This document shows, piece after piece, positions 6,981 to 41,418 of a stretch of DNA of 64,000 nt (position 1 is its first letter; every line of letters begins with the position of its first letter). The translations under genes and the position numbers were made by a program. The notes under the pieces are model-generated. The model worked only from the letters and a program-made list of their open reading frames with translations. It ran no database searches and had not been told where the DNA came from. Source of the DNA: Heterodontus francisci (lineage: Eukaryota); contig NC_090414.1 of assembly GCF_036365525.1 (NCBI RefSeq), positions 21,103,846 through 21,167,845 of the forward strand. The letters run 5' to 3'.

Positions 6981-6984
6981 CAGC

Positions 6985-15360: not shown

Positions 15361-15501
15361 CTGTATCAAACAGAGAGACAAGAGTCCAGTAACCACGAAA
15401 TAGAAATAGGCAGATTTAGCTCGCACTATTTCATCAACTTGCAGTTGATGGGGACACTGTCCCCATCAAACACTCCCCAGGACAGGTACAGCACTGGGAT
15501 T

Positions 15502-18500
15502 GGCTGGGCAATTTGGAGCACTTCCTGCCAGCAATCAGGGGCAGCAACTGCAGAGTGGAGACTGCAGCAATTGGAGAGAGGAGAGTGGAATAACTGCAAA
15601 GAGGTGACTATAGAGTGGAGACAGCTGCATTTACTGTGGAACTGTTGCACTTTTTCAAGGATTAAGAAGACCTGCAAGTCATTTTGGAGAGGTGGGTGTT
15701 GGAGCACCAGAGAACTGTTGGTTGTTTGGACTGTTGGGGGAGGGAGGAGGCACCGGAAGATCCAGGGGTGGGGCTGCCAAATTCTATAGGGAGCCCTTGT
15801 ATTTGGTCTTGTGTTTATCTGCCATCCTGCACAAAAGGGGCTCCCTCCCCACCCCCAACTGTGTGGCTCGGGACAGCTGGAGCTGCCTGGCTGAAGACTA
15901 TATTTATACAACAACAGAAAAGGGAGAGAACCGGGCGGCTCGAGCCGACCCGGGCGAAGAGCACTCCCCTAACTGGAAGATTGAATTGTAGACTCTGCAG
16001 GAAGGTGCTCCAACCACCAATTGAAGTGTAACATCCTCGCAGCTGTTCTCTCTCTTCCATCACTCGGCCACCTATCCTCTCCTCTCCTTGTCCTTTTCAA
16101 CCCTATCCTCCTCTACTCCCATCCCCACCTCCCCCATCATATTGTTTGTGTTAAAGAAAACTGTCGTGTGCTTTGTTTTTTGGGGGTGGGCGTAGCTCTG
16201 CGACCCCATGGCAAGCCCCTCTTCGCCGGTGGCGGGGCCTTCCCGTTTATATGCTGCTGCGGCTGCTGCAGCTGCACCTGTTGCCCCGTCACCGTTTGCT
16301 TTATTAACATCGAAGCATGGAGTCAAGAGCTACGTCCACCCAAACATGACTATCGAGGCGTGCGTGAAAGCAATGGCCGAGGCTGTCGGCCCTTCAGCCA
16401 TTGTTGCAGCCTCTAAAATGTACGGGAAGGCAGTGTTATTCCTGAAGACCGAGCGGGCGGTGTCCCTGGCTCTGAGCAAGGGGCTCACCGTGGGCGGGAC
16501 CTTTCTGCCAGTGGACCCCCTGGAGGCCACTGCGCAAAGGCTCATTCTATCCAATGTCCCGCCCTTCATTCCTGGTGAGCTCCTCCTTCCCCACCTGCAC
16601 CATCTGGGGGAGGTAAAGACGGGGCTCACCCCAGTCCCGCTCGGTCTTCGGGAGAACAGCCTCCGACACGTGTACTCCTTCCGCCGCCAGTTATTCATGC
16701 AGCTGGCGCGGGAGGAGGTTACAGAGGGCCACTTTAATGTAGAATTCCAGGGGACGGCCTACCTCGTCTTCTGGACATTGGACGGGGTGCGGTGCCATGT
16801 CTGTAAGGGGGTGGGGCATGTTCGTAAGAACTGCCCCAACCTCCCGGCTGCCAACTCCAACTCGGTGGCCCAGGGTGGCGACACTGCACCTCCTCCCACC
16901 CCCACTACACCTCCACCAGATACCATTCAGTCGGTACTGGAGGCTGTGGTTTTCACGGCCTCCAGCAGGGAGGGGGGTGACCGTCCAAGTGGAAGGAAGG
17001 CGCAGAGGAGAAATAAACATCGAGAGGCGCGTCCCCTGGACACCGTGACACTACCCGAGCCTGAGCTCAGCCCAAGGCCCGATCTCGGGAAGTCAACTTG
17101 CCCCAGGGCTGGGCTCAGGCCCAGGGTGAATAAAAAAAAGGAGAGTGTGGAGGTGGAGGTCTCTGATGATATGGAGGTCTCTGAGCCTCCGCACACAACT
17201 GGGAAAAAGAGGAGAAGGCACCCCTCCACAGAGGTAATGAGGGACCCTGAGGCGCAGGGCCCATCTGTTGGAGGGGAGCTGTCTCCTGTTTCGGGTCCCC
17301 AGGTTTCCCCTACCGCCACCACCAAGGCTGCAAAGTCCGGGCAGGAGCACCCTATTCCTCAGGATGGAGGGGAGGGGAAGGCCCCGGTACTTGAGGCCCC
17401 TCCTGAAGGAGTAAGTGGGGCCCTGCTTGTGGTGGGGAGCCTGGGGACGCCGCCCATTCTGCCACTGCCACTGGGTTGGGTGCCCTGAGTAGAGGGGAGG
17501 GCGAGGCCTCAGAGGGTCGGCCCTCCCAGCCGGAGTCCACCACCAACCAGGAGACACCCGACCCGGTTATAGCTGAGAATGCTGCCCCATCTGCTGGGCC
17601 TGTGGGTGCTGGCGGAGCGGGAGATAGCCTCCTCCCTCCGCCTCCAATCTCGGCTCCGGCTGGTTTCCCGGAGTCGGGAACTTCTGTCTCCCCTGGACCA
17701 CTCATTGCCCTGGGGACGGAGGTGGAGGGGGGTCCTGAGCCGCTGGTGCCTACAGGCTCCAGTTTCACAATAGAACCCAGAGAGGACTCCTCCGCCATCG
17801 ATCCTGGGGGTGGGATCGTGACGGAGGCGGGACCAGCTGGCGCGGCCGGGACGTTCGCCCCACAGCGTGCGGTGGGAGTGTCGGCCGCTGGCGGTGACGA
17901 CCCGGAGGAGGATGGGGATTCAGTGGGGGGCACGGAGGATGATCTTGATTCCATCGCCAGTGAGATGGTGGAGTCCCTCATGCCTCCCACCGAATCTCCT
18001 CTCATCCCCACGGCGGAACTCCAGGATTTCCTCGCGGTTTGCAGGGGCTGCCGCAATAAAGTTCAGCTGGCCCTCGACCGTTGGTCGAATCTGGCGCTGA
18101 TCATCCAGTCCGTCCGTGCCGCCCTTAAGATAGCGGGCAAGCGCACGGGCGTGAAACTGGTTGAGAGGCGCCGTTTTAATGTGTTCCTCAATGGGTTGCT
18201 GGGGGAGTGGAAGGCCAGGTGCACGTCCACTCCCTCCTCACAGTGAGCTGTTGGTGACGGGTTTTAAGTACCTTTGACATGAAGATAACCATAGCCAGCC
18301 TCAACACCAACGGCAGCAGGGGGTCTCACCGCAGATTTCACAATCTCTCAGTCCTCAGGGAAGGGAGATACGCGGTGAGCTTTCTGCAGGAAACCCACAC
18401 CGTTCCGGGAGACGAAGCCACCTGGCTCCTGGAGTGGCAGGGTGGGGTCTACATGAGTCACCTCACCCCTATTTATAGTGGGGTGGCTATCTTGTTGGCC

Positions 18501-21500
18501 CCGACTTTTCAGCCGGAGATCTTGGGGGTCAAGGAGCTAGTGCCGGGCCGCTTGCTCCACCTCGCCGTTCGCCTGGGTAGCGTGCCACTCCACTTTGTGA
18601 ACGTGTACGCACCCAGACCTGGCGCGTTGCAAGCGCGCTTCTTTGAAGAAGTGTCCGCTCTCTTGAGCTCCATCGATAGCGGCGAGTGCATCATCCTCGG
18701 GGGGGATTTTAACTGCACCCTCGAGGTGGGGGATCGCTCCGGTCCCCAGCGCGGCCAAGCGTCGGTGGAGAAGTTGAGGGGACTGATCAGCTCCCTTAAC
18801 TTGGTGGACGTCTGGCGGAATCTCCATCCCGACTCCAGCGCCTTCACATGGAGGTCTGGAGGAGGAGGGTCGCGAATCGACCGCCTCTACATTTCGCATG
18901 CGTACGCCTCCCGCATCTCGGCGGCCTCCATGCGGCTGGTGCCGTGCTCGGACCACCGCTTGGTGTGGGCGGAGTTCACTCCGCTCCGCACGCGGGCGGG
19001 GTCCGCGTACTGGCACTTTAACAAACGGCTGCTGGAGGACGAGCGATTTCGGGACTCGTTCTGTCGATTCTGGGCCGACTGGAGAAGGGAGCAGGGGGGC
19101 TTCCCCTCCTTGAGGCTATGGTGGGATGTGGGCAAGACTCACATCCGCGTCTTCTGTCAGGAGTACGCGAAGGGGTCGACCAAGAGGCGAGAAGCCGAGA
19201 TCGGGCGCCTTGAGAGGGAGGTGCTCGACTTGGAGTCCCGCCTCGGTCATGCCGTCGCGGACCCGGCCCTGTGGCAGGCCTACAAAGAGAAAAGGGCGCG
19301 CTGAGAGACCTGCAGCTCTTAGGGTCCCGAGGCGCGTACGTGAGGTCGCGGATCCAGATCCTGGAAGATTTGGACCGTGCCTCACCCTTCTTCTACTCGC
19401 TGGAAAAATGGCGGGGGGTCCGTAAGCAGCTCGTCGAGCTGCTGGCCGACGACGGATCCTCCATCACGGATCCGGAGGGAATGGGCCTCCTGGTACGTAC
19501 TTATTACAGTGCGTTGTTCCCTCCGGATCCGTCCGGCGAGGATGCGCGCAGAGTTTTGTGGGAGGACCTGCCGCAGGTCAGCCCGGAGGGCGCCGAAGGA
19601 TTGGAGGCTCCGCTCACGTTGTTTGGAGCTGACTGGCGCCCTCCACCAGCTCTCGAGGGGCAAATCCCCGGGGCTGGATGGGTTGACCGTGGAGTTCCTC
19701 AGGGCGTTCTGGGACGTCCTGGGGGACGATTACGCGCGGGTCCTGGGGGAAAGCCTGGCGACCGGGGAGATGCCCCTCTCGTGGCGCAGGGCGGTTATCG
19801 TCCTGCTGCCGAAGAGGGGCGACCTCCGCCTGCTTAAAAACTGGCGTCCGGTCTCCCTCCTCAGCACGGATTATAAGATCTTTGCCGCCGCAGAGTGTCT
19901 AGTCAAAGTTAACGGGTCCTTGACGGCGCCCCTTCGATTTGGGAGAGGAGTGCGTCAGGGGTGCCCCATGTCCGGCCAATTGTATACCATCTGCGTGGAG
20001 CCCTTCCTGTGCCTGCTTCGCAGGAGGTTGACGGGATTGACTCTGCGCGAGCCGGCCATGCGGGTCGTCCTCTCGGCTTACGCCGACGACGTGCTCCTCG
20101 CAATCACAGATCCCGTTGACTTGCGGAGGATGCGCGACTGCCAGCAGACCTTTTCTGCCGCGTCCTCCGCGAGGATCAATTGAGAGAAATGTTCCGGACT
20201 CCTGGTTGGTCAGTGGCGGGTGGACTCCCTGCCGGAGGAGATGACACCTTTTGCGTGGAGCACCACGCACCTCCTCTATCTGGGAGTCCACCTTAGCCCC
20301 GCTGAGGAAGCCTGGCCGGCAAACTGGCAGGAGTTGGAGGCGAAAGTCACCGCTCGGCTGGGGCGCTGGACAGGACTGCTCCGAGTGCTTTCCTACAGGG
20401 GCCGAGCGCTGGTCATAAACCAACTGGTGGCCTCCATGCTGTGGTACCGGTTGGTCACTTTGGCCCCGCCCCCTGTATTTGCCACCAAGATCCAGAAGAA
20501 ACTCGTCGGTTTCTGCTGGGGCAAGAGGAAACACTGGGTCTCTGCCGCGGTCCTGAGTCTCCCGATCGAGGAGGGCGGTCAGTCGCTGGTGTGCGTCCGC
20601 ACCCAGGCTGCGACTCTCCGCCTTCGGACCCTGCAGAGATACCTGTACGTCGAGCGTCCTCCCAGATGGTGTGCGCTGGCGACGTATTTTTTCCGCCAGT
20701 GTCACTGCCTTCAAGACGACACGCAGCTCCCGGTGGAGTCCGTTAGCCGCGCCTCTCTGAGGGAGTTGCCTGTCTTTTACCGGGATCTTTTCCGAGTCTG
20801 GAACATGGTCGCCTCCAGTCAGGGCGCTCCCCCGCCGGCGGAGGAGAGCGCCTCGGCTGTCCGGGCGACCGACTCCGGGGACGGTCCGGCGGGTGGAGGA
20901 GTAGCCGAAACCCCCGGGACGCCCCTCACTGCGGGTGGCGAGGGGGCTCGGGAGTGCGGAGCGATCCCGGCCGAGCTGACCCCCGCTCGGCCGGAACTGC
21001 TCATCGGACCCAGGCCCCGAAACCCTCCTCGGGAGCCGGTCCCGCACAACCCGAGCCGCCTCTCGGAAATGCCCTCCGTGCCATTCCAATCGGCGCGGAG
21101 GGGTTTCCTGTACGGGTTGCTCCTGCACACTCTCCACTTCCTCGCCCTCGTCAGCCGGCCGGACACGCCCTGGCGGTCCGCGTTGCCATCTGACGGCGAG
21201 GGGAAACCCCGATGGAGGTCTCTCTACGCGGGAGTCTTCCCCCTTTACATCGGGGACCTGGGGTGGAGGGTGCTGCACAGAGCAGTCCCGTGCAATAGGC
21301 TTTTAAGTAGGTTCACGGACTCCCAGGCCTCCTGTACTTTCTGCAGCCTGGACGAGTCCGTGTTCCACGTTTACATGGAGTGTGCGAGGTTGCAGCCCCT
21401 CTTTGAGTATCTGAAGGGGCTGCTCCTCAAATTCTGGCTGCACTTCAGTCCCACGCTCCTGATCTTTGGGCACCCGGTGCGGAGGGGCTCGGGCCGGGAG

Positions 21501-21885
21501 GAGGATCTCCTCGTCGGTCTGCTCCTGGGCCTGGCCAAGGTGGCGATTCACAGGTCCAGGCTGCGGGCCGTCGGGGGTTCCGTCCTCCCCGATTGCCTGC
21601 CCCTCTTCCGCGGTTACGTTCGCGCCCGGGTGTCCCTGGAGAAGGAGCACGCGGTGTCCGCCGGTACGCTTGAGGCCTTCCGCGACTGGTGGGCACCGCA
21701 GGGACTGGAGTGCATTGTCGACACCGAGAATGGCATTTTAATTTGAGTTTTTGTTTATTTCTGTTTTTAATAAAGTTATTTTAAAAATATAGGTGTGTAT
21801 ATAAAGGGGGCCTGAGGAATAAAGGCCCCCTCGACATAAAATATATAAAAGGGGCCTGGGGTTTCAAGGCCACCTAAAAAAAAAA
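15502..21885 (+). mobile_element. Tx1-clade non-LTR retrotransposon, near full length, defective (copy 1), antisense in avidin intron 3
   Basis: ORF1 16208-18246 with CCHC knuckle CHVCKGVGHVRKNC (frameshift ~17440); ORF2 18279-21746 with APE endonuclease (FLQETH, GGDFN, SDH), RT (YADD) and C-terminal CTFC..H..C; frameshifts ~19290 and ~19620, deletion at ~19886, stop at 20181; poly(A) 21876-21885. Confidence 0.95.
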
Positions 21886-22125
21886 CGGGGGTTAGATACA
21901 GAGTAAAGCTCCCTCTACACTGTCCACATCAAACACTCCCAGGACAGGTACAGCACGGGGTTAAATAACGGTTCCTTGAGATGATGAGGCTCTGAAGCAT
22001 CACTTCCACCCCTTGGTATTCCCGCCTCCCTTGAGATAAAGACTAACATCCACTCACATTGCTTGTAAGTAAGTACCTGTGGGCAGGATTTACAATCCTA
22101 TCTACACAAGAGATGCTTTAATTAC

Positions 22126-22249
22126 CCGGTAGCTCCCCAGTTATCCTCTGGGTTCGACGCACTTCGCCGGTGTAACCACATGGTTTTCAAGACCTCTCTA
22201 TTTTTTATCTTAAAGTGCTGTCCGGTCCAAGCTGTGACACACCCTGGGT
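22126..22249 (-). CDS. Avidin-like protein, exon 3
   Basis: DPGCVTAWTGQHFKIKNREVLKTMWLHRRSASNPEDNWGATG, compare avidin STTVFTGQCF...EVLKTMWLLRS...DDWKATR; AG/GT, phase 1/2. Confidence 0.92.
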
Positions 22250-22455
22250 CTGTGGGCGAAGGAAATACAAAACAGTCATTAGGGTATGTGTCATTGTCGG
22301 TTTAAACAGAGAAAACCAAACACTAGGGTTTGTTTCTGGAGGGATAGAATCGAAAGCAGGGAGGTTATGTGAAACTTGGACAGAACCTTCGTTAGACCTA
22401 GTCATATACGTGGCTGCCCAGAGCATCATACAGCTCAATAAATACTATGGGTTAC

Positions 22456-22642
22456 CTGTGATCCACCTCACTATAAACCCAAACGTTGGTTGGCTGAGGT
22501 TCTGCTGATATCCAGTTACAACCCCTCTTGCACTGCGTCCAGTCTTCAACATGTAAGAGCCACTTATGAGCCCAGAGTCACGCACTACGATGTTCAGGCT
22601 TGACCCGAGTTCACTTATCCAACAGCCAGTCAGTGGCAGTGC
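22456..22642 (-). CDS. Avidin-like protein, exon 2
   Basis: ALPLTGCWISELGSSLNIVVRDSGLISGSY...GYQQNLSQPTFGFIVRWIT, compare avidin SLTGKWTNDLGS...GTY...QPTFGFTVNW; AG/GT, phase 0/1. Confidence 0.92.
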
Positions 22643-23446
22643 CTGCCGGGAAGGTAAGGCATTTATTAAACATCATTGACTCTACATCTATTTCATTGAT
22701 AGATAAAGAAACTTGCGTTTCTATAGCGCCTTTCAGGGCCTCAGGACATGCCAAAGTGCTTCACAGCCACAACGTACCTTTTACGAAGTGCCGTCACTGT
22801 TACAGGAAACGCGGTGACCAATTTGCGCGCAGCAAGATCCCGCAAACAGCAATGTGATAATGACCCAGGTCGTCTGTTAGTGATGTTGGTTGAGGGGTAA
22901 ATATTGGCCCCGGGACACCGGGGACACAGGTCTCGGGAGTGGGGCTTAAACCCATATCTGACTCAGAGGGAGGGGAGGTCTGCCCGGTGTCCTGGGTCAA
23001 TATTTATCCCTCAACCAACATGGCTAAACAAAAAAAGCAGATGATCTGGCCATTGCCACAGTGCTGTGTATGGGATCCTGCTGTGCGCAAAATTGGCTGC
23101 CAGGTTTGCTACATTGCAACAGTGAGCACACCTCAGAAGGTACTTCATTGCCTGTAAAGCGCTTTGGAATGTTTTGAGAATGTGAAAGGCACTACAGAAA
23201 TGCCCTTATACATCTCTACTGACGGAGTGCAGCACTGGCAGAGGTGCCCTCTCTCAACTGACTCTTCGCCACATACTTTACCTCAGGCTTGACCCCTCAT
23301 CATCCAGTGCTCCTGGATGGAAAATGCAGGGCTGTAATTGTCAGGGGCAGACCGAAGGAGACTGCAGTGAACAAGCAACAAACATAAACGTTCCTCCTTT
23401 TCCTTACCCCGGGTACCTTGCTTGAGGCTCTCTGTGTTGGGAAATC

Positions 23447-24252
23447 TCTAACCCAGGGGTCACTGGACAGTGATCAGGAGCAGGAACCCTGACTGATTCT
23501 CCCCCCTCTCTCTAACCCAGGGTCACTGGACAGTGATCAGGAGCAGGAACCCTGACTGATTCTCCCCCCTCTCTCTAACCCAGGGTCACTGGACAGTGAT
23601 CAGGAGCAGGAACCCTGACTGATTCTCCCCCCTCTCTCTAACCCAGGGGTCACTGGACAGTGATCAGGAGCAGGAACCCTGACTGATTCTCCTCTCTCTC
23701 TAACCCAGGGTCACTGGACAGTGATCAGGAGCAGGAACCCTGACTGATTCTCCTCTCTCTCTAACCCAGGGTCACTGGACAGTGATCAGGAGCAGGAACC
23801 CTGACTGATTCTCCCCCCTCTCTCTAACCCAGGGGTTACTGGACAGTGATCAGGAGCAGGAACCCTGACTGATTCTCCCCCCTCTCTCTAACCCAGGGGT
23901 CACTGGACAGTGATCAGGAGCAGGAACCCTGACTGATTCTCCCCCTCTCTAACCCAGGGGTCACTGGACAGTGATCAGGAGCAGGAACCCTGGCTGATTC
24001 TCCCCCCTCTCTCAAACCCAGGGGTCACTGGACAGTGATCAGGAGCAGGAACCCTGGCTGATTCTCCCCCTCTCTAACCCAGGGGTCACTGGACAGTGAT
24101 CAGGAGCAGGAACCCTGACTGATTCTCCCCCCCTCTCTCTAACCCAGGGGTCACTGGACAGTGATCAGGAGCAGGAACCCTGACTGATTCTCCTCTCTCT
24201 CTAACCCAGGGGTCACTGGACAGTGATCAGGAGCAGGAACCCTGACTGATTC
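23447..24252. repeat. ~62-bp tandem repeat, about 13 copies, avidin intron 1
   Basis: Unit CTCTAACCCAGGGGTCACTGGACAGTGATCAGGAGCAGGAACCCTGACTGATTCTCCCCCT(CT)n. Confidence 0.92.
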
Positions 24253-24389
24253 TACCCCCACCCACCCCACCTACCCTCTCTCCCCAACCCAGGCGATTAC
24301 TCTGACCGATTCTGACCGGCGTACCCCCCCCCCCCCCCCCCCCCAACTTTCCTGCAGGAACCCATTCTCCAGACGGTCTACTGACTTAC

Positions 24390-24461
24390 CATTTCTTCAC
24401 AGGAGGTGCTGAAGACACACAAGGAAAGCGTGAGCGCCAGGTACACAATCTTGCCCTGCAT
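24390..24461 (-). CDS. Avidin-like protein, exon 1 (signal peptide)
   Basis: gcagcagcATG context; MQGKIVYLALTLSLCVFSTSCEEM has a basic residue, hydrophobic core and small-residue cleavage region; gtaagt donor in phase 0 matches exon 2. Confidence 0.8.
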
Positions 24462-25079
24462 GCTGCTGCCCTCTCTCAGTCCGTCTGTTACCGAGGGGCG
24501 GCTGCAGCCAAACAGTCCCGACCCGTCGGCGAGGGTGGCTGTGAGGTCATGTTGTCTAACAGTTGAACAAGCGCAACACTTGAAAGAGGAGCAAGTAAAG
24601 TGACACAGGAATAACTGACGGGGGATCAGCCTATCTGAGCTGTAACTGAACCCATACAGTGCACATGCTGTGTGCAGAATAAGCTGTCAGTAAGGAAAAG
24701 GGTGGTGGGGTTGGGGGGGGGGGGGGGGAAGTCTCCTCTTGTAGCCCATTCCCAGGTATTCCCCTGTCTCATTCTGTCCCTCCATGACTATCACACCCCA
24801 GCATCTTTCACCCCCAGGTTACCGGATAATGAGACATTGAACCCAGGGCAAAATATCTCACAGCCGTCCAGCTGCAGCTAGGATTTTCATTTAGATAGCG
24901 CCTTTCCCATCCCGCAGCGCTTATATCGTCAGCGATTCTTTTTTTTTGTGTGTGTGTGCAGCCACTTCGCGCGCACAGCAAGATCCCACAAGCACAGCAA
25001 TGGGACCAAGCTTAACCGGCTTTTATTGATGCCGGTTGAGAGATGAATACCGGCCCCAGGACACCGGGGAGAACTTCTC

Positions 25080-28639: not shown

Positions 28640-29160
28640 ATCCCTGTCGCCCTGCTTTCCTGCATTACGAGTCTAGATGTTATGATCGCTCTTGCCCAAG
28701 TGCTTCCCCCACAGACACTTGGTCCAATTCTCCCATCTCATTCCAGCAACGCCTCCTTTCTACCTGGGACCGAGAACATACCGATCAATGAAGTTCTCCT
28801 GAACACATTTTAGAAATTCCTCCCCCTCCTCTCTCTTCAATATTATCCCAATCGATATTTGGGTAATTCAAGTCCCCCAATATCACCACTCTATAGTTCT
28901 TGCCTTCCCGAATCAGCACTGCCAACCCACCTCCTTTTTTCCCTTCTCTAACTTTTCGGCACGCTTTATTTCCTTGTATATTAAGAGCCCAGTCCTTTCC
29001 ATTTGTAAGCCACGTTTCCATTATCGCCACTACATCATATTCCCACACGGCTATTTGTGCTTGTAACTCACCAGCCTCATTCACCACACTGTGTGCGTTT
29101 ACACACATGTATTGTAACCCTGTCTTTGCATTTCTTGTGCTCCTTCTCAGCCCACTCCTA
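28640..29160 (-). mobile_element. CR1 LINE endonuclease fragment
   Basis: YDVVAIMETWL...GGGLAVLI...VVILGDLNYPNIDW. Confidence 0.75.
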
Positions 29161-29173
29161 TCTCGTACAGACT

Positions 29174-29558
29174 GGGAGGAGGATCTCCTCGTCGGTCTGC
29201 TCCTGGGCCTGGCCAAGGTGGCAATTCACAGGTCCAGGCTGCGGGCCGTCGGGGGGTCTGTCCACCCTGATTGCCTGCCCCTCTTCCGCGGTTACATTCA
29301 CGCCTGGGTGTCCCCGGAGAAGGAGCATGCGGTGCCCGCCGGTACGCTTGAGGCCTTCCGCGACCGGTGGGCACCGCAGGGATTGGAGTGCATTGTTGAC
29401 GCCGAGAATGGCATTTTAATTTGAGGTTTGTTTTATTTTTTCAATTTTAATAAAGTTATTTTGTAAAATGTATATCAGGGGGACCTGAGGAATAAAGGCC
29501 CCCTCGACATAAAATACATAAAAGGGGCCTGGGGTATAAAGGCCACCTTAAAAAAAAA
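29174..29558 (+). mobile_element. 5'-truncated Tx1 copy (~0.39 kb)
   Basis: Matches ORF2 end EEDLLVGLLLGLAKVAIH...ENGILI, 3'UTR and poly(A); followed by tggggttagatacagagtaa. Confidence 0.93.
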
Positions 29559-31240
29559 TGGGGTTAGATACAGAGTAAGGATCCCATAAAAATGACACAA
29601 AGTGTAGCGGAAATCTGGAATTCTCTTTCCCAACTGAAGTGTTCAAGATTGAGATCAATAGATTTTTATTGAGTAAAGGGTTTTTAAGGAATATGGAGCC
29701 AATCTGGGTCGGGTTAGAATACAGATCAGCCACTGAATGCACAGCAGGGTCGAGGGGCTGAATGGCCTCCTCCTGGACGTGCTTGCGGGCGGATAAGGAT
29801 CCAACCGAGGACTTGGAATTATAAGAGTGAGAATCAACGCGGAATGGCTTTCATCAGATATCCGTTCGGAGTGGGGGAAAAAACCTGGATGAATTCCCCC
29901 CCTCACTACCCGAAGGCGGTGGGCAAGCCTACTTGTATCATTAAACCACCGTCCCAAATCCGATCCGCTCGGTCAGTAGGGGGCTGAAGCGTAAGGCGCA
30001 GTCGGAGACGGACAGGCAGCTAGCTCACTGATCTAATGTCACAGCCACTTGCAGGTAAAATTCGCAAAGCTGTCCTGAAACATGCGAAATCGACAGGCAG
30101 GAAATGACCCAGCTCAACCATCAAGCCCTGCCCTACGCTCGCCATTTGCGCAGCGTCAGGTCTAAACATTTCCTCCCTCCCGTTCCTCTCCCCACCCCCT
30201 CCCCTCCCCTCCCCTCGGCTCCGTCCTACTGCCATGCAATCTCCTGGAAGAGGCAAAGAACCAGAGGAAAACCCCAGGAACAATAAGGAGAACATTACTG
30301 GATCAAGTGTGACCTATACAGACACTTCCCTTCCGGAAGACACCATCTCTGGCTCCCTCGGAGAGTCAGCACGGATTTCAAAGTGCTCTCTTCTCGGGGA
30401 AACCATCCAACTTCCAGTCTATTGCTGCTCTTAAATAGTTTACACACATGTCCCTGGTCCTCTCTGATCTCTCAATGGACCCGCTACCCAGCATTTTAAT
30501 TATTTTATCGACCTCGATTAGGTCATCTCCACGCTACTGTGAAGTAAACAGAAGGAGGTCATAACAAGATAAGAAATAGCAGCAGGAAGAGGCCATTCGG
30601 CCCATCAAGCCTGCTCCACCATTCAATACGACCATGGCTGATCCTTGGCCTCGACTCCACTCCAAGGCAAGTGCATCCTTCCTTAAAGATGGAGACCAAA
30701 ACTGCGCACAGGGCTCCAGGTGTAGTCTCACCAAAGCCCTGTACAATTGTAGCAAGACTTACTGAAGTCATGTATTCCAATCGCCTTGCAATAAAGGCCA
30801 ACATGGTTGGTTCTTAAGCATACCTGAGTAACTAAGTTCCTTTAAGCTAGGAATCGTTTTTGCAGCTTTTCTCGGGGCATTTTCCAAGACGACTTTCTTG
30901 TGTGTGGGGACCAAAATTGGGCCAGCACGCTAGATGTGGTCCAACCAATGAGACCGTGGGAGCTGCACCTGAGAGGGCCGACAGGGTTGAATGTCTCACC
31001 CGGAAGGGTGGCACTGCCGACACTGCAGCACTCCCTCAGTACTGGCACTGGGAGTGTCGGCCTGGATTTTGTGCTCAAGTCTCTGGAGTGGGGGTCAAAC
31101 CCGCGACCTTCTGGCTCAGAGGTGAGTGTGCAATCGCTGTTAGCATTGTCCCTGAACCTTTGATGGGAGGGTTTCAGGAGGACCTCGGAGCGGACACTTC
31201 CCCACCACCACCCCTCCCCCCGCGACTGCCGCTGTCCTAC

Positions 31241-31318
31241 CTTGAGACGGTCATCCTGGATTCGGAAGTTGGCCCTCCCATCTTCATTGGCTTGGATGTT
31301 TCCCAGGTCACCAACGTG
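31241..31318 (-). CDS. CCS: CCS exon 6
   Basis: HVGDLGNIQANEDGRANFRIQDDRLK; 78 nt, AG/GT. Confidence 0.95.
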
Positions 31319-31789: not shown

Positions 31790-32305
31790 CCAGGTACAGT
31801 ACGGGGGTTAGATACAGAGTAAAGCTCCCTCTACACTGCCCCCATCAAACACTCCCAGGACAGGTACAGTACGGGGGTTAGATACAGAGTAAAGCTCCCT
31901 CTACACTGTCCCCATCAAACACTCCCAGGACAGGTACAGTACGGGGGTTAGATACAGAGTAAAGCTCCCTCTACACTGTCCCCATCAAACACTCCCAGGA
32001 CAGGTACAGCACGGGGGTTAGATACAGAGTAAAGCTCCCTCTACACTGTCCACATCAAACACTCCCAGGACAGGTACAGCACGGGGTTAGATACAGAGTA
32101 AAGCTCCCTCTACACTGTCCCCCATCAAACACTCCCAGGACAGGTACAGCACGGGGGTTAGATACAGAGTAAAGCTCCCTCTACACTGTCCCCCATCAAA
32201 CACTCCCAGGACAGGTACAGCACGGGGTTAGATACAGAGTAAAGCTCCCTCTACACTGTCCCCATCAAACACTCCCAGGACAGGTACAGCACGGGGTTAG
32301 ATACC
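31790..32305 (+). repeat. ~69-bp target minisatellite, about 7.5 units, CCS intron 5
   Basis: Same unit as 1384-1748, no insertion. Confidence 0.95.
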
Positions 32306-32587
32306 CACCTGAATAATGCGTTTGGGATCCAACTGGAGAGTGATACTTTCCTGTATCTTATACCTGCCGTCCAACTGCCTTTCTGAGTGAGATTACCGAA
32401 TTGGAAGGTATTTATTTTGTGGGGAGATCCGATCCTCTGTGACATGGGAAGAGATTGCCCCCAATTATTTATAGCCTCCTGGGCTCCCTGTTGAGGAGAA
32501 CTGTTGAAACATCCCTCGGACATACTGTGCGAGTCACCCTCACTGCAACTCCCTGGGTGGGCACGGAGCAACACAGACCTCACTTAC

Positions 32588-32648
32588 CCGGTCTACATCC
32601 TGCGGACCGCCGTGCCTGTTTTTTCCTGGATTGTAGTGGTTGCCACAG
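32588..32648 (-). CDS. CCS: CCS exon 5
   Basis: SCGNHYNPGKNRHGGPQDVDR; 61 nt, gtaag donor. Confidence 0.93.
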
Positions 32649-33548
32649 CTGTGGAGGAATCACATGCAAACATTAATCTGCAGCGAGGATGTCACAAAGG
32701 GTGGCTCAACGGTTACGTCCCTTGCCTCTGATTCACGAAGGCCGTGGGTTCGAATCCCACTCCCACTCGCTTCCGGGCTGGCGCTCCCAGTGCCGCACTG
32801 TCGGAGGTGCCGTCTTTTGGACGAGACTAAAACCGAGGCCCCGTTTTCCTTCTCAAGGACGTAAAAGATCCCTTTGGAAGGAGAGCCCCTCCCCGGAGTT
32901 CTGGCCAATATTTATTCCTCAACTAACAACACTTAAATGAAAAAAAAACCCAGATGATCTGGTCACTGCAGTTTATGGGATCTTGCTGTGTACAGTTTGG
33001 CCGCTGCCAGTGGGATAACTGGCTTGTGCACAACGGTGCCACTTTCCAAAACCATTCTGGAACTGGAGATATGTCGCCAATGAAAGGAGCCACAAAACTG
33101 TTGGATTGTCCTAAAAAAATACCCGACCGGCCCCAGCCTGTATGTGACTCCCGTCACACGCCAATGTGGTTGACTCTGAAACGGTTGAGCAAGCAGCTCA
33201 GTTGTCTCCAACCACTTAACAGCACTTTCGACTCACGGGCTGTAGCGGTTCAAGCAGGTAGCTTCCCCACCTCAAGGGGCAATTATTGGATGGGCAACAA
33301 ATGCTGGGCCTTGCCAGCAGTGCTTGTATCCTAAGAACGAGCGAAGAAGAAAATTGGGTTTGGTTGTGATTCCTACCGTGGCCAAATAGCCAGCCGGTGT
33401 CAAGTGCCCAGACTTGGGAATCAGATGGCGCAGCAAAAGTCGGGAACCGGGGACGGGAGAAAAAAGCTGGGCCCCCAACTTTGCTGCCCGTCACCTGTGG
33501 AATCCACCTCAGTATCTCCCTCACACACATTCACGGGCGACACACTAC

Positions 33549-33726
33549 CTGAAGCAGGAACTGCTCAGGTCCCCAAACTCATGCACATGTAAACCGTGCA
33601 GGCCTGGTCTCAGACCGTCGATTGTCCCTTCGATGACACACTGCTTCTCTGACAGCTGCAGGAACCGCACTGCGCCCTTGATGTCACCCTCTGGGCCCAG
33701 CATCGCCACAGCAGCACCCAGGTCCT
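33549..33726 (-). CDS. CCS: CCS exon 4 (SOD-like domain)
   Basis: DLGAAVAMLGPEGDIKGAVRFLQLSEKQCVIEGTIDGLRPGLHGLHVHEFGDLSSSCF; 178 nt. Confidence 0.95.
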
Positions 33727-33753
33727 CTATGGAGAAATGGCACAAGGGCACAG

Positions 33754-34287
33754 GTTAGATACAGAGTAAAGCTCCCTCTACACTGTCCCATCAAACACTC
33801 CCAGGACAGGTACAGCATGGGGGTTAGATACAGAGTAAAGCTCCCTCTACACTGTCCCATCATAAACTCCCAGTGCAGGTACAGCATGGGGGTTAGATAC
33901 AGAGTAAAACTCCCTCTACACTGTCCCATCATAAACTCCCAGTGCAGGTACAGCATGGGGGTTAGATACAGAGTAAAACTCCCTCTACACTGTCCCATCA
34001 TAAACTCCCAGGGCAGGTACAGCACGGGTTACATACAGAATAAAGCTCCCTCTGCACTGTCCCATCATAAACTCCCAGGGCAGGTACAGCATGGGTTACA
34101 TATAGAGAAAAGCTCCCTCAAAAAAAACAAAAAAAAAAACGGGGTTAGATACAGAGTAAAGCTCCCTCCACACTGTCCCCATCAAACACTCACAGGACAG
34201 GTACAGCACGGGGGTTAGATACAGAGTAAAGCTCCCTCTACACTGTCCCCATCAAACACTCCCCAGGACAGGTACAGCACGGGGGTT
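33754..34287 (+). repeat. ~69-bp target minisatellite, about 8 units with variants, CCS intron 3
   Basis: Same unit; the array resumes at 41308-41365 after the Tx1 insertions. Confidence 0.93.
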
Positions 34288-34690
34288 GGCTGGCCGGGAG
34301 GAGGATCTCCTCGTCGGTCTGCTCCTGGGCCTGGCCAAGGTGGCAATTCACAGGTCCAGGTTGCGGGCCGTCGGGAGGTCCGTCCTCCCCGATTGCCTGC
34401 CCCTCTTCCGCGGTTACGTTCGCGCCCGGGTGGCCGTGGAGAAGGAGCATGCGGTGTCCGCCGGTACGTTTGAGGCTTTCCGCGACCGGTGGGCACCGCA
34501 GGGACTGGAGTGCATCGTCGACGCCGAGAATGGCATTTTAATTTGAGTTTTTTGTTTATTTATCTGGTTTTAATAAAGTTATTTTAAAACTGTAAATATG
34601 TACATAAAGGGGGCCTGAGGAATAAAGGCCCTCTCGATGTGAAAAATATAAAAGGGGCCTGGGGTATAAAGGCCACCTTTAAAAAAAAAA
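34288..34690 (+). mobile_element. 5'-truncated Tx1 copy (~0.40 kb)
   Basis: Preceded by cagcacgggggtt; ORF2 end, 3'UTR, poly(A) 34681-34690; followed by cggggtttag. Confidence 0.93.
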
Positions 34691-34717
34691 CGGGGTTTAG
34701 AAAAAAAAACGGGGGTT

Positions 34718-37700
34718 GGCTGCTGTCTAATTGGGGTGTTGACTGCTGATTGCAGCAACGAGCCTCAGCTGAGAGTGCTGGTGGCAGTTGGAGGTTGCTG
34801 AGGTGGAGAGAGGAGCTGGACTGAGCAAGGGAAAGCAGTTACAACCAAGCAGAGGGAAAGCTTCAACAACAATCACCATTAAAGAGAAGAGAGAGATATT
34901 TTTTGTTGGAAACAAGGCTTTGTCTGGAGGTGGGGGCTGAACACCAGTAATTTGCTTTACTTTGGACTGTTGTGGGACGAACAAGTGGCCGGAACAACAA
35001 GGGGTGGGGCTGCCAATTCAGCAGGAATCTGTGCTGCTGCACAAGCACACAGGAAAGCTCCCTCCCCACCCCAATTGCCAAGCCTGGGTCAGCTGAAGCT
35101 GCCCGGCTAAAGAGACGGAAGGGGATAGATAGTGCCTGGGCAGCTTCAGCTGACTCAGGTGAAGATACCTCCCTCAACCAGAAGATCGGAAGACCAAGTG
35201 CAAAGACTGTTTTAAGTGTACTGTGAGCACCACCTCCAGAAAGCAAGTCATCCCTTACCACATGTCTTTACCTCTCCTCTATTCCCTCAGCCTCTCCACT
35301 AACCTGTTGTTTGTTTTTTTTTTAATACATATCCAATATCTTTTGTGAATCTTTTGTTATTCGGTTTGCAAGCCCACAATTTGGGGTGGGTTTAGCTCTT
35401 GGATCCATGGCAAGCCCTTCAACCCCGGTGGCCGGGCCCTCTACAACCTATGCAGCTGCAGCCTCTGTGGCTGCCCACGTGGCCCCGTCACCCTTTAAAT
35501 TGCTAACATCCAGCCATGGGGTGAAGAGCTATCCCCACCCCAACATGTCTATTGAGGCCTGCGTAAAGGCAATGGCCGAGGTTGTCGGCCCCTCGGCCAT
35601 TGTTGCGGCCTCAAAGATGTATGGGAAGGCTGTGTTCTTTTTGAGGACCGAGCGGGTGGTGTCCCTGGCCCTGAGTAAAGGGATCACTGTGTGTGGGGGG
35701 GGTGGGGGACCTTCCTGCTGGTGGACCCTCTGGGGGCCACTGTGCAGCGGATAATGCTATCAAACGTCCCACCCTTCATTCCCAGTGAGCTCCTCCTCCC
35801 CCATCTGCACCATCTGGGGGAGGTGAGGTCGGGGATCACCCCAATCCCGCTCGGTCTTCGGGAGCACAGCCTCCAACATGTCTACTCCTTCCGCCGCCAG
35901 TTATTTATGCAGCTGGCGCGGGAGGACACGGCAGGCCAATTTAATGTGGAGTTCCAGGGGACGGCCTACCGTGTCTTCTGGACCTCAGGCGGGGCGCGGT
36001 GCCACGTCTGCAAGGGGGTGGGGCATGTTCGCAAGAACTGCCCCAACCTCCCGGCCGCCAGCTCCACCTCGGCGGCCCAGGTTGATGCCGCTGCACCTCC
36101 TCCCACTACCCCCACACATCCTACAGACACAGCTCAGTCGGTTCCGGAGGCTGTGGTTTTCACAGCCTCCAGCGGGGAGGGGAGTGCCCGTCCGAGTGGA
36201 AGGAAGACGCGGGGAAAAATAAACACTGAGAGGCGCGTCCCCTGGACACCATGACACAACCCGAGCCTGAGCTCAGCCCAAGGCCCGTTCTCACGGAATC
36301 CACCTGTCCCAGGGCTGGGCTCAGGCCCAGAGTAATGAAAAAGAAGGAGGGTGCGGAGGCCTCTGATGACATGGAGGTCTCTATGCCTCCGTGCCCTAGT
36401 GGGAAAAAAGAGGAGAAGGCACCCCTCCACTGAGGTAACGAGGGGCCCTGAGGTGCAGGGCCCATCTGTTGGAGGGGAGCTGTCTCCTGGTTCAGGTCCC
36501 CAGGTTCCCCCTACCGCCACCACCAAGGCTACAAAGTCTGGGCAGGAGCACCCTATTCCTCAGGATGGAGGGGAGGGGAAGACACCTGTACATGCAGCCC
36601 CTCTGGGGGAAGCCAGTGGAGCCCTGCTTGTGGTGGGGAAGCCTGGGGACGCCTCCCATTCTGCCACTGGGTCGGGTGCCCTGAGTGGAGGGGAGGGCGA
36701 GGCCCCAGATGGTCGGCCCTCCCAGCCAGAATCCACTCACAACCAGGAAACACCCGACCCGGTTATAACCGAGAATGCTGCCCCATCTGCTGGGCCTGTG
36801 GGTGCTGGCGGAGCGGGAGATGGCCTCCTCTCTCCGCCTCCAGTCTTGGCTCCGGCTGGATTTCCGGAGTCGGGCACTTCTGTCTCCCCTGGGCCGCTCA
36901 TTGGCCTGGGGACGGAGGTGGAGTGGGGTCCTGAACCGCTGGCGCCCACAGGCTCTAGTTTCACAGCAGAACCCAGAGAGGACTCCTCCGCCATCGATCC
37001 TGGGGGTGGGATCGTGACGAAGGCGGGACCAGCTGGCGCGGTCGGGAGTCCGCCCCACAGTGTGCGGTGGGCGTGTCGGCCGCTGGCAGTGACGACCCGG
37101 AGGAGGATGGGGATTCGGTGTGGGGCACGGAGGGTGATCTTGATTCCATCGCCAGTGGGGTGGTGGAGTCCCTCGTGCCTCCCGAGTCACCTCTAATCCC
37201 CACGGCGGAACTCCGGGATTTCCTCACGGCTTGCAGGGGTTGCCGCGATAAAGTTCAGCTGGCCGTCGGCCGTTGGTCGAATCTGGCGCTGATCATTCAG
37301 TCCGTCCGTGCCACCCTCAAGAAAGTGGGCAAGGGTGGGGGCGTGAAACTGGTTGAGAGGCGCCGTTTTAATGTGTTCCTCAATGGGTTGCTGGGGGAGT
37401 GGAGGGCCAGGTGCACTTCCACTCCCTCCTCACAGTGAGGTGTTGGTGACGGTTTTAAGTACCTTTGACAAGAAGATAACCATAGCCAGCCTCAACATCA
37501 ACGGCAGCAGAGGGGCTCACCGCAGATTTCACAATCTCTCAGTCCTTAGGGAAGGGAGATACGCGGTGAGCTTTCTGCAGGAAACCCACACCGGTCCGGG
37601 AGACGAAGCCACCTGGCTCCTGGAGTGGCAGGGTGGGGTCTACATGAGTCACCTCACCGCTATTTCTAGTGGGGTGGCTATCTTGTTGGCCCCGACTTTT

Positions 37701-40700
37701 CAGCCGGAGATCTTGGGGGTCAAGGAGCTAGTGCCGGGCCGCTTGCTCCACCTCGCCGTTCACCTGGGTAGCGTGCCGCTCCACTTTGTGAACGTGTACG
37801 CGCCCAGGCCCGGCGCTTTGCAAGCGCGCTTCTTTGAAGAAGTGTCCACTCTCTTGAGCTCCATCGATAGCGGCGAGTGCATCATCCTCGGGGGGGATTT
37901 TAACTGCACCCTCGAGGTGGGGGAATCGCTCCGGACCCCAGCACGGCCAAGCGTCGGTGGAGAAGTTGAGGGAACTGATCAGCTCCCTTAACTTGGTGGA
38001 CGTCTGGCGGAATCTCCATCCCGACTCCAGCGACTTCACGTGGAGGTCTGGAGGAGGAGGTCCGCAAATCGACCGCCTCTACTTTTCACAGGCATACGTC
38101 TCCCGCGTCTCGGCGGCCTCCATGCGGCTGGTGCCGTGCTCGGACCACCGCCTGGTGTGGGTGGAGTTCACTTTGCTCCGCACGCGGGCGGGGTCCGCGT
38201 ACTGGCACTTTTACAACTGGCTGCTGGAGGACGAGCGATTTCGGGACTCGTTCTGTCGATTCTGGGCCGACTGGAGAAGGAAGCAGGGGGGCTTCCCCTC
38301 CTTGAGGCTATGGTGGGATGTGGGCAAGATTCACATCCGCCTCTTCTGTCAGGAGTACGCGAAGGGGTCGACCAAGAGGCGGGAAGCCGAGATCGGGCGC
38401 CTTGAGAGGGAGGTGCTCGACTTGGAATCCCGCCTCGGTCATGCCGTTGCGGACCCGGCTCTGTGGCAGGCGTACAAAGAGAAGAAGGGCGCGCTGAGGG
38501 ACCTGCAGCTCATAGGGTCCCGAGGCGCGTACGTGAGGTCGCGGATCCAGATCCTGGAAGATTTGGACCGCGCCTCACCCTTCTTCTACTCGCTGGAAAA
38601 ATGGCGGGGGGTCCGTAAGCAGCTCGACGAGCTGCTGGCCGACAACGGATCCTCCATCACGGATCCGGAGGGAATGGGCCTCCTGGTCCGTACTTATTAC
38701 AGTGCGTTGTTCTCTCCGGATCCGTCCAGCGAGGATGCGCGCAGAGTTTTGTGGGAGGACCTGCCGCAGGTCAGCCCGGAGGGCGCCGACGGATTGGAGG
38801 CTCCGCTCACGTTGGCGGAGCTGACTGGCGCCCTCCACCAGCTCTCGAGGGGCAAATCCCCAGGGCTGGATGGGTTGACCGTGGAGTTCCTCAGGGCGTT
38901 CTGGGACGTCCTGGGGGACGATTACGCGCGGGTCCTGGGGGAAAGCCTGGCGACCGGAGAGATGCCCCTCTCGTGGCGCAGAGCGGTCATCGTCCTGCTG
39001 CCGAAGAGGGGCGATCTCCGCCTGCTTAAAAACTGGCGTCCGGTCTCCCTCCTCAGCACGGATTATAAGATCTTTGCCCGGGCTATGTCTACCCGCCTGG
39101 GCTCCGTGCTGGCCCACATGATCCACCCCGACCAGTCCTACACGGTCCCGGGCCAGTCCATCCAGGACAACATCCACCTGGTCCGGGACCTGATCCATCT
39201 TTCCCAGAGGACTGGTCAGTCGGTCGCCTTTCTCTCCCTCGATCAGGAGAAGGCGTTCGACAGGGTGAATCACAAATATCTTTTCGGGACTCTGCGCGCT
39301 TTCGGACTCGGGCCGCATTTTGTGGCCCGGGTCCGACTTTTATACGCCGCCGCAGAGTGTCTAGTCAAAGTTAACGGGTCCTTGACGGCGCCCCTTCGCT
39401 TTGGGAGAGGAGTGCGTCAGGGGTGCCCCATGTCCGGCCAATTGTACACCATCTGCGTGGAGCCCTTCCTGTGACTGCTTCGCAGGAGGTTGACGGGATT
39501 GGCTCTGTGCGAGCCGGCCATGCGGGTCGTCCTCTCGGCTTACGCCGACGACGTGCTCCTCGCGGTCACAGTTCCCGTTGACTTGTGGAGGATGCGCGAC
39601 TGCCAGCAGACCTTTTCTGCCGCGTCCTCCGCGAGGATCAATTGGGAGAAATGTTCCGGACTCCTGGTGGGTCAGTGGCGGGTGGACTCCCTGCCGGAGG
39701 AGGTGACACTTTTTGCGTGGAGCACCACGCACCTCCTCTATCTGGGAGTCCACTTTAGCCCCGCTGAGGAAGCCTGGCCGGCAAATGCCAGGAGTTGGAG
39801 GCGAAAGTCACCGCTCGGCTGGGGCGCTAAACAGGACTGCTCCGAGTGCTTTCCTACAGGGGCCGAGCGTTGGTCATAAACCAACTGGTGGCCTCCATGT
39901 TGTGGTACCGGTTGGTCACTTTGGCCCCGCCCCCTGTATTTGCCACCAAGATCCAGAAGAAACTCGTTGATTTCTTCTGGGGCAAGAGGAAACACTGGGT
40001 CTCTGCCGCGGTTCTGAGTCTCCCGATTGAGGAGGGTGGCCAGTCGCTGGTGTGCGTCCGCACCAGGCTGCGACTCTCCGCCTTCGGACCCTGCAGAGAT
40101 ACCTGTACGTCGAGTGTCCTCCCAGATGGTGTGTGCTGGCGACGTATTTTTTCCGCCAGTGTCACTGCCTTCAAGACGACACGCAGCTCCCGGTGGAGTC
40201 CGTTAGCCGCGCTTCTCTGAGGGAGTTGCCTGTCTTTTACCGGGATCTATTCCGAGTCTGGAACATGGTCGTCTCCAGTCAGGGTGCTCCCCTGCCGGCG
40301 GAGGAGAGCGCCTCAGCTGCCCGTGCGGCCGAATCTGGGGACCGTCCGGCGGGCGGAGGAGTAGCCGAAACCCCCGGTTGCCCCTCACTGCGGGTGGCGA
40401 GGGGGCTCGGGAGTGCGGAGCGATCCCGGCTGAGCTGACTCCCGCTCGGCCGGAACTGCTCATCGGACCCAGGCCCCGAAACCCTCTTCGGGAGCCGGTC
40501 CCGCACAACCCGAGCCGCCTCTCGGAAATGCCCTCCGTGCCATTCCAGTTGATGCGGAGGGGTTTCCTGTACGGGCTGCTCCTGCACACTCTCCACTTCC
40601 TCGCCCTCGTCAGCCAGCCGGACACGCCCTGGCGGCCCGCGTTGCCATCTGGCGGCAAGGGGAAACCCCGATGGAGGTCTCTCTGCACGGGAGTCTTCCC

Positions 40701-41307
40701 CCTTTACATCGGGGACTTGGGATGGAGGGTGCTGCACAGAGCAGTCCCGTGCAATAGACTTTTAAGTAGGTTCATGGACTCCCAGGCCACCTGTACTTTC
40801 TGCGGCCTGGACGAGTCCGTGTTCCACATTTATACGGAGTGTGCGAGGTTGCAGCCCCTCTTTGAGTATCTGAAGGGGCTGCTCCTCAAATTCTGGCTGC
40901 ACTTCAGTCCCACGCTCCTGATCTTTGGGCACCCGGTGCGGAGGGGCTCGGGCCGGGAGGAGGATCTCCTCGTCGGTCTGCTCCTGGGCCTGGCCAAGGT
41001 GGCAATTCACAGGTCCAGGTTGCGGGCCGTCGGGGGGTCCGTCCTCCCCGATTGCCTGCCCCTCTTCCGCGGTTACGTTCGCGCCCGGGTGTCCCTGGAG
41101 AGGGAGCACGCGGTGTCCGCCGGTACGCTTGAGGCCTTCCGCGACCGGTGGGCACCGCAGGGACTGGAGTGCATCGTCGACGCCGAGAATGGCATTTTAA
41201 TTTGAGTTTTTTGTTGATTTATCTGGTTTTAATAAAGTTATTTTAAAAATATAAGTGTGTATATAAAGGGGGCCTGAGGAATAAAGGCCCCCTTGATAAA
41301 AAAAAAA
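34718..41307 (+). mobile_element. Tx1-clade non-LTR retrotransposon, full length, defective (copy 2), antisense in CCS intron 3
   Basis: ORF1 from 35407 (CCHC knuckle, several frameshifts) to 37438; ORF2 ~37469-41205 with start ATG changed to AAG, stop at 39472 and frameshifts; exact duplication CGGGGGTT at 34710-34717 and 41308-41315. Confidence 0.95.
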
Positions 41308-41418
41308 CGGGGGTTAGATGCAGAGTAAAGCTCCCTCCGCACTGTCCCCATCGAACACTCCCAGGGTGTCCTCAACCCATAGCCCAGGACTCTAACAACA
41401 TCTGGTCATTCTACTTAC

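Follow-up and report, generated by a model that had tools for sequence, protein, structure and literature searches.

The stretch analysed here, 64,000 nucleotides of Heterodontus francisci (contig NC_090414.1, positions 21,103,846 to 21,167,845; hereafter the window, whose own numbering is used throughout), carries four copies of a retrotransposon without long terminal repeats (non-LTR) of the Tx1 clade, lying among host genes and all joined at the same base to a 69-71-bp minisatellite. Comparing the window with itself gave two near-full-length copies (A and B) and two 3' fragments of about 385 nt (C and D), and a more sensitive search (blastn, word 7, E<=0.01) found no copy beyond these four in the window. 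Features are collected in Table 1.

Table 1. Coordinates of the element copies, their target, open reading frames (ORFs) and host genes in the window
Feature	Position	Strand	Remark
Copy A, upstream minisatellite half	15454..15501	+	ends in degenerate 8-bp duplication (15494-15501)
Copy A, near-full-length Tx1 element	15502..21885	+	starts GGCTG, ends A10
ORF1 of A, candidate zinc knuckle	16208..18246	+	frame broken near 17438; sub-threshold zf-CCHC (E 0.008)
ORF2 of A: APE endonuclease, reverse transcriptase, C-terminal zinc region	18279..21746	+	
Unbroken endonuclease domain of A	18279..18998	+	catalytic motifs LNTNG, QETH, NVYAP, GDFN, RIDR, SDH
Gly-rich betaB6-betaB5 hairpin loop, 7 residues	18849..18869	+	WRSGGGG
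Low-complexity in-frame linker replacing conserved ORF2 wrist block	20828..20991 (A); about 40288-40450 (B)	+	
Two GC-rich 3' untranslated region hairpins	21805..21875	+	9-nt loops; z -3.2 for 21800-21880
Downstream target of A	21886..21967	+	about 1.2 minisatellite units
Copy C, 3' fragment	29174..29558	+	ends A9; intron of CCS-like gene, antisense
Downstream target remnant of C	29559..29585	+	short
Copy D, 3' fragment	34288..34690	+	starts GGCTG, ends A10
Target piece, A9-only scar (34701-34709), 5' duplication of B (34710-34717)	34691..34717	+	three-event stack
Copy B, near-full-length	34718..41307	+	other 5' untranslated region subfamily
ORF1 and ORF2 of B	ORF1 from 35407; ORF2 about 37470-41205	+	
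Downstream target of B	41308..41365	+	exact 8-bp duplication
Minisatellite array between exons of Rel-homology gene	1384..1745	+	A11-only scar at 1563-1573
Short minisatellite array	6850..6979	+	T8-A6 scar ending at 6944
Unoccupied minisatellite array	31791..32304	+	7.4 units, 8 empty sites
Minisatellite array that took D, B and two A-run-only events	33753..34287	+	ends in duplication 34280-34287
A-run-only scar (A7 C A11) at insertion base	34121..34139	+	about 43 bp upstream target missing
Rel-homology gene exons	about 380-3777	-	domain matches in ORFs
CCS-like gene, exons with HMA and Sod_Cu	about 41900 down to 27050	-	domain matches in ORFs
RRM/zinc-knuckle gene (RBM4-like)	about 53160-56440	-	domain matches in ORFs

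In every copy a run of nine or ten A residues leads into (C/T)GGGG(G)TT(T)AG, beginning at 21886, 29559, 34691 and 41308, as described in the initial annotation of this DNA, which had proposed a Tx1 element targeting a minisatellite of about 69 bp. The upstream target halves it had pointed out are likewise present for three copies, ending at 15501, 34287 and 34717. For the second long copy (B) the duplication CGGGGGTT is exact, as had been said (34710-34717 equals 41308-41315); it has one mismatch in the short copy D at 34288 and two in copy A (15494-15501 against 21886-21893). In A, B and D the target at the 5' end stops 8 bp beyond the base of the 3' junction, and there the element sets in with GGCTG in all three. 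The junction always reads ...CAGCA^(C/T)GGGG(G)TTAG, so that 4 of the 4 copies and fragments in the window sit at the same base of the minisatellite. The chance of all four falling inside the minisatellite is 7e-7, and that of a common phase and strand a further 4e-7, both figures assuming independent random insertion. Beyond the target the flanks of the copies are unrelated, C and D are 93% alike, and the 5' untranslated regions (UTRs) of A and B differ, and we therefore take the insertions to be independent.

The target unit is 69-71 bp long and forms arrays beginning at 1384, 31791 and 33753, with shorter pieces elsewhere in the window. BLAST with the unit gave 11 loci covering 1853 of the 64000 bp, all on the plus strand, one of them a 16-bp match that may be due to chance; apart from that 16-bp hit the unit has no match in the window outside its own loci. 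These loci start and stop in varied phases and have no flanks in common, no Rfam family reached its gathering score in the window, and 20 target sites are unoccupied. The possibility raised in the initial annotation that GGGGTTAG might be part of the element itself fails on these empty sites, on the 5' halves lying in register, and on the lack of any match between an element query and the minisatellite arrays. The target was seen only inside the window, and searches of proteins and prokaryotes gave no second genome with the minisatellite target: two minisatellite patterns had 0 matches in a set of bacterial and archaeal genomes, as expected for animal DNA, the translated minisatellite occurred in 0 of 2403 protein candidates with no Atlas match at 0.9 or more, and a query spanning the target and copy D brought up 57 proteins, with the minisatellite translation present in 0/57 of them and in 0/268 proteins found earlier.

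Insertion events stack at one site, and some of them consist of nothing other than A residues. Runs of six or more A followed by target account for 8 of 40 such runs on the plus strand and 0 of 30 on the minus strand. Four of the eight have no element body (1563, 6939, 34129 and 34701) and are absent from the initial annotation. These scars sit at the Tx1 insertion base or one base from it: at 1563 an A11 run accompanies the loss of about 22 bp of target, the scar at 34701 lies between D and B, and the weakest event, at 6939, is a T8-A6 run that misses the usual junction by one base. The scars may be aborted priming events or remnants of deleted insertions, two origins that the sequence cannot separate. 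Uniform A9-10 tails were considered as a sign of templated read-through and set aside, as all 26 runs of at least nine A or T in the window are 9-11 long. A CR1-like 3' end at 6581-6850 (the CR1 label being our assumption) adjoins a minisatellite locus 3-4 nt from the Tx1 junction base; possibly the same nick was used there, or the proximity is chance.

Both short copies begin, within 4 nt of each other (29174 and 34288), in G-rich sequence that resembles the 5' start of the element itself and lies about 380-385 nt ahead of the tail. A non-autonomous short family behind C and D found no support: of the three informative sites one joins C to D and two join D to B. A hairpin as the cause of the common break was not significant (z -1.19; the best window ranks 17 of 1125 overlapping windows). 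Directly upstream of C stands GTACAG, a candidate remnant of the 5' target, found at 17 of 8836 background positions and overlapping a CR1-like fragment.

Within the pieces of ORF, Pfam matches were obtained to Exo_endo_phos (5.5e-17) and RVT_1 (8.4e-25), with zf-RVT below the cut-off. The closest characterised protein is Xenopus Tx1L ORF2 (P14381), 55% identical over 96% of a linker-reverse transcriptase (RT) query, and the named match of highest identity is a stingray protein at 72%, both among 120 matches listed of 588; over the endonuclease and linker the element and Tx1L are 48% identical. The assignment to Tx1 made in the initial annotation was borne out by the RT phylogeny, where the element falls with Tx1L, a sturgeon protein and sea-turtle proteins in a clade of 30 rows (Shimodaira-Hasegawa-like approximate likelihood ratio test 100), and the endonuclease phylogeny agrees (11-row clade with Tx1L, 100/99). 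The RT tree had 135 rows and kept 134 of 148 proteins, those not covering the region being dropped, the stingray match included; the endonuclease tree took 106 of 198 covering proteins with the turtles thinned to four. Both contained Tx1-like matches only and were midpoint-rooted with no L1 outgroup, and Tx1L is their sole row with a nameable target; no labelled Tx1-Mar, SINEU-3, Keno, Kibi or Koshi sequence is among them. Of the features expected in a Tx1 element, an A-tail, 5' truncation and target-site duplication are present. The element is of the Tx1 clade and works like Tx1L, yet it is not Tx1L proper. In the same searches the P0016 cluster showed that sea turtles have a young high-copy sister family of 403 members, several with full ORF2s of 1306 residues and an 11-residue loop.

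The initial annotation had stated that the two long copies carry different lesions, from which an intact consensus could be rebuilt. The lesions in ORF2 indeed do not overlap: A has frameshifts near 19292 and 19622, a 270-bp gap at 19884 and a stop at 20181, and B an altered start codon, frameshifts near 37924, 39786, 40063 and 40376 and a stop at 39472, with 270 bp of RT surviving only in B. The identity of A and B, however, is only 52% in the 5' UTR and 83% in the N-terminal half of ORF1, rising to 90% in the C-terminal half and 96% in ORF2; a single intact consensus was an overstatement, since A and B belong to different subfamilies and their 133 differences in ORF2 are not polarisable from two copies. 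In the N-terminal half of ORF1 the differences fall mostly at third positions (80 vs 26 and 30) and the ratio of nonsynonymous to synonymous change (dN/dS) is 0.30; for ORF2 it is 0.52, and leaving CpG sites out gives 0.47 (P 0.001). The excess of third-position differences in ORF1 together with the divergence of the 5' UTRs therefore speaks for two once-active lineages with a recent common ORF2, and the history of the subfamilies likely included an exchange of 5' parts. ORF1 look-alikes in the Atlas (0.92-0.94) carry zf-CCHC and, in a minority, RBD_ZCCHC3, so that ZCCHC3-like RNA-binding features of ORF1 of A are a lead. No head derived from U1 or U2 small nuclear RNA (snRNA) was detected in either 5' UTR, where Rfam gave no match at gathering score and only unrelated ones below threshold. 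Directly at the junction, the 5' ends of A and B (15494-15530 and 34710-34745) have motifs on the reverse strand that resemble a CCAAT box, a possible internal promoter, and copy A has a 23-bp triple repeat at 15541-15609.

Target-primed reverse transcription (TPRT) is the established model for such insertion, and the junctions can be read in its terms. The endonuclease would nick the bottom strand at CCCCCG^TGCT (opposite A^C) or a single base further left, because the last A of the target is indistinguishable from the tail; we hold the exact position with moderate confidence. The freed 3' end would then prime cDNA synthesis on the A-tail, with the 3' UTR hairpins probably acting as the signal by which the RNA is recognised. 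Against shuffled sequences the 3' UTR has the better fold in three of the four copies (z -2.5, -4.2 and -3.4; -1.4 in C), and copy B has only the first of the two hairpins. Cutting of the top strand after GGGGGTT would give the 8-bp duplication, the last two T bases of which may alternatively be microhomology with the 5' end of the element. An aborted event would leave nothing but an A-run behind, in most cases together with a loss of 20-45 bp from the upstream target.

The endonuclease of the element differs from that of Tx1L in a hairpin loop that is reported to insert into the minor groove and to help set target choice (PMC1950540). Between the anchoring T and S, A and B have WRSGGGG whereas Tx1L has the 11 residues YVRVRDGHVSQ. 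A loop pattern matched 160 of 270 proteins, many of them near-identical turtle copies, with 11 residues in 147, 12-13 in nine and 7-8 in four, these four being A, B, P0152 and the unrelated P0036. When the pattern was relaxed, the endonuclease tree showed a clade of short loops (100/100) made up of A, P0149, P0151 and P0152, so the loop deletion is a trait of a lineage and not decay. The best sequence match in the PDB is 2v0s, an L1 chimera with the R1Bm loop (LR1), which aligns with no gap at the loop; the R1Bm loop is of equal length, but R1Bm belongs to the R1 clade and targets 28S ribosomal DNA (rDNA), implying convergence and not kinship. The hairpin matters in TRAS1 and R1Bm (PMC1919474), the Tx1L endonuclease nicks almost only at its target, and loops grafted into L1 change its nicking preference without transferring specificity (PMC1950540). 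Less surely than the steps above, the shortening by four residues might have gone with a move from a Tx1L-type target to the G-rich site; a causal role of the short loop in the change of target we hold only tentatively, somewhat doubting it.

A second departure lies in ORF2, where A and B are without the block EPL..N...RVGDLL...W...R..RLL and have a shorter linker in frame instead. The distance between the anchors on either side is 167 in the element versus 203-220 in 22 relatives. A profile of the block matched 86 of 96 long relatives, a partly circular count since it was built from 52 of that set. Among 57 C-terminal relatives, the majority of them not long enough for a test, it matched 4 (E up to 0.011). 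It gave no match in six frames of the window, where a copy of the block in another frame had been looked for. A predicted model of the C-terminal 520 residues of A has a mean predicted local distance difference test (pLDDT) score of 85.7, with only residues 229-264 below 50, and superposes on L1 ORF2p 738-1275 with Z 15.5 and a root-mean-square deviation of 4.3 over 415 aligned residues. Model residues 4-317 span L1 739-1061 and the wrist of L1 ORF2p is 863-1061 (PMC10830420), which at the level of whole domains places the loss in the wrist. Large deletions of the wrist impair L1 (PMC10830420). The substitution pattern suggests that the shortened-wrist ORF2 was under purifying selection, mobilisation in trans being possible as well; that a short-wrist ORF2 worked in cis would be a less sure step of the proposed mechanism. 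Both the short loop and the shortened wrist are changes at the level of the lineage.

Site-specific insertion into the 69-71-bp repeat is, in our judgement, very probable, and the fuller reading, that of a target-specific apurinic endonuclease (APE)-type non-LTR retrotransposon of the Tx1L subgroup, in two subfamilies, inserting by TPRT at one base of a dispersed minisatellite, is probable. Several points weigh against these conclusions. The evidence, flanks included, comes from one 64-kb window, and the sequence recognised may be much shorter than the minisatellite unit. The 5' neighbour of B is an A9 run and not the usual upstream target, the D-A9-B stack gives no readable order of events, and whole insertions later deleted, or slippage, could account for the A-run-only scars. 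The dN/dS from two decayed copies is rough and is no proof of activity in cis. Short loops are nearly inactive in L1, with 6% nicking for LR1 and 10% for L3G (PMC1950540), while R1Bm itself works with such a short loop; and loop and target are tied together by a single correlation, the target being known for one short-loop element.

The junctions could also have arisen in other ways. If the block after the A-tail were element RNA, as a fixed 3' end or by read-through, insertion would not be site-specific at all; the single strand of all copies and loci and the varying length of the downstream flanks (27-82 bp) would fit this, yet 20 sites are empty, the upstream half lies in register with an 8-bp duplication in three of the four copies, and no second A-tail stands at the ends of the flanks, making such an origin highly improbable. 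We give still less credence to one old insertion spread together with its minisatellite by local duplication, which would have the junction inherited rather than made independently. All copies do lie within 26 kb and C and D start within 4 nt of each other, but the diverged 5' UTRs of A and B and the third-position differences in their ORF1 (80 vs 26 and 30) need separate active lineages, there is no homology beyond the target flanks, and C and D (93%) are less alike than D and B (97%).

Two further explanations change what the target is. It is unlikely that the minisatellite arose by amplification of part of another transposon, which would be the true target, an origin compatible with site-specific insertion that would make the class of target an ordinary one. 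Transposon targets are common in the Tx1 clade (Tx1L in Tx1D, Tx1-Mar in Mariner-N4_AMi; PMC4494074) and three of the six other minisatellites tested match dispersed repeats of the window, whereas the loci of the 69-bp unit show varied phases and no common flanks, and the window holds neither a parent nor an Rfam family at gathering score. Rather more doubtful is an endonuclease that reads only a short telomere-like GGGTTAG, the minisatellite being its main local supply. GGGTTAG is part of the target and stands beside the cut, recognition by the endonucleases of Tx1L and TRAS1 spans about 10 bp (PMC1919474), and a telomere-specific element, Tx1-1_ACar of the anole, is cited in PMC10088271. Against it, 18 of the 41 GGGTTAG sites lie outside the minisatellite and 0 of these 18 are occupied, a weak argument; 12 of them come from one other tandem array, and the window holds no tandem telomeric repeat. 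Equally weak is the value of (23/41)^4 = 0.10 for the four copies, or 0.01 for the eighth power with the scars included.

Of known systems, Tx1L is the nearest to the minisatellite-targeting element, with two ORFs and an APE endonuclease-RT-zinc region, and it too enters a repeat precisely, at a single position (PMC1950540). The target of Tx1L is the transposon Tx1D whereas that of the element is a free 69-71-bp minisatellite, and the bases 3' of the inferred nick are TGCT in the element and AGTT in Tx1L (PMC1950540). Tx1L has an RDGH tip in its 11-residue loop and a wrist block; the element has the Gly-rich 7-residue loop and lacks the block. Tx1L and Tx2L sit in Tx1D and Tx2D; comparing the target loci of the element with one another inside the window showed no common transposon-like flanks. 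The duplication made by Tx1L is roughly 23 bp, longer than the 8 bp of the element.

Targets recorded for the Tx1 clade comprise transposons, U2, U5, 5S, microsatellites and satellites (Kojima 2015, PMC4494074), where a family is called target-specific if one type of sequence makes up more than 20% of its genome-wide flanks. Tx1-Mar and SINEU-3 (both of crocodilians), Keno, Kibi and Koshi likewise show a target preference, fixed positions and tandem insertions around a duplication (PMC4494074), but their targets differ (Mariner-N4 for Tx1-Mar, U2 snRNA for Keno, microsatellites for Kibi and Koshi): the element has neither the U2 target nor the U1/U2 head of Keno and Tx1-Mar, and its flanks are the 69-bp unit and not the (TC)n or (TTC)n of Kibi and Koshi. 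Tx1-1_ACar, cited in PMC10088271, is also of the Tx1 clade and GGGTTAG occurs in the target of the element, but the insertions studied here are interstitial and mostly intronic. The satellite-targeting families ('Sat' in the legend to Fig. 3 of Kojima 2015) share the clade and a tandem-repeat target and are known by label only. Tx1-like repeats have been noted, without targets, in whale shark and Callorhinchus (PMC8455134). No published description of this family or target was found, a weak negative since most subscription papers and Repbase Reports were not covered; passages of PMC1919474, PMC3747384, PMC4640811, PMC8869645, PMC11406177, PMC10620051 and bioRxiv 2026.06.26.734816 do not describe the family. 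Judged from the literature covered, the target is probably uncatalogued, though a Repbase or Dfam family, or one of the satellite-targeting families, may already have it. New are the 7-residue loop, an ORF2 that lacks the wrist block yet bears signs of purifying selection, and the two subfamilies.

The host genes form a row on the minus strand of this vertebrate DNA (Rel-homology, CCS-like and RBM4-like) and are presumably neighbours in other vertebrates too; the domain search took in 144 of 157 ORFs of the window. Copies B and D share one intron of the CCS-like gene and C lies in another, all antisense to it, and A is placed beyond its last exon. Every one of the 11 minisatellite loci, like every Tx1 copy, lies on the plus strand, antisense to the CCS-like and Rel-homology genes, a bias with P of about 0.001-0.004 if the loci and copies are independent. 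On the plus strand the unit has acceptor-like (pyrimidine run then CAG) and donor-like (CAGGTA) motifs, and one idea is therefore selection against sense intronic copies.

Other repeats are plentiful in the window, and the dispersed ones we take to resemble shark short interspersed elements (SINEs) and CR1 long interspersed elements (LINEs). Of the six other minisatellites tested, the 33-, 37- and 45-bp ones (6981-7365, 42199-42462 and 55614-55975) match parts of dispersed repeats that occur at other places in the window, and it therefore seems that this genome amplifies transposon fragments into tandem arrays. A 64-bp minisatellite at 23445-24259 has GGGTTAG in each unit on the minus strand (12 matches) and no insertion inside. 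Decayed LINE fragments with endonuclease and RT matches lie on the minus strand at 28788-29173, adjoining copy C, and at 12098-13181. A stop-free frame of 892 codons at 58074-60752 consists mostly of a 42-bp repeat (47 copies) and has no Pfam match.

Many Tx1 families are target-specific, some of them with recorded satellite targets, and the appeal of this one as an integration tool is modest until its specificity and activity are measured. A further reading, improbable in our view, has a lineage of Tx1L relatives, probably of cartilaginous fishes, change its target through the loss of four loop residues, live with an ORF2 that lacks the wrist block, and make its own landing pads, with read-through transcripts and repeated nicking seeding and reshaping the minisatellite; if true, element and target would spread as a pair, which would explain the one orientation of arrays and copies. 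If the short-wrist ORF2 works, it would mark a dispensable part of the wrist domain. How the endonucleases of APE-type retrotransposons change targets is still an open question, and nature offers in this element a near relation of Tx1L, itself one of the few enzymes tested: some half of the sequence is identical, the target is another, and four residues of the loop are cleanly deleted. Since the endonuclease frame of copy A is intact, swaps of the loop with Tx1L are directly testable.

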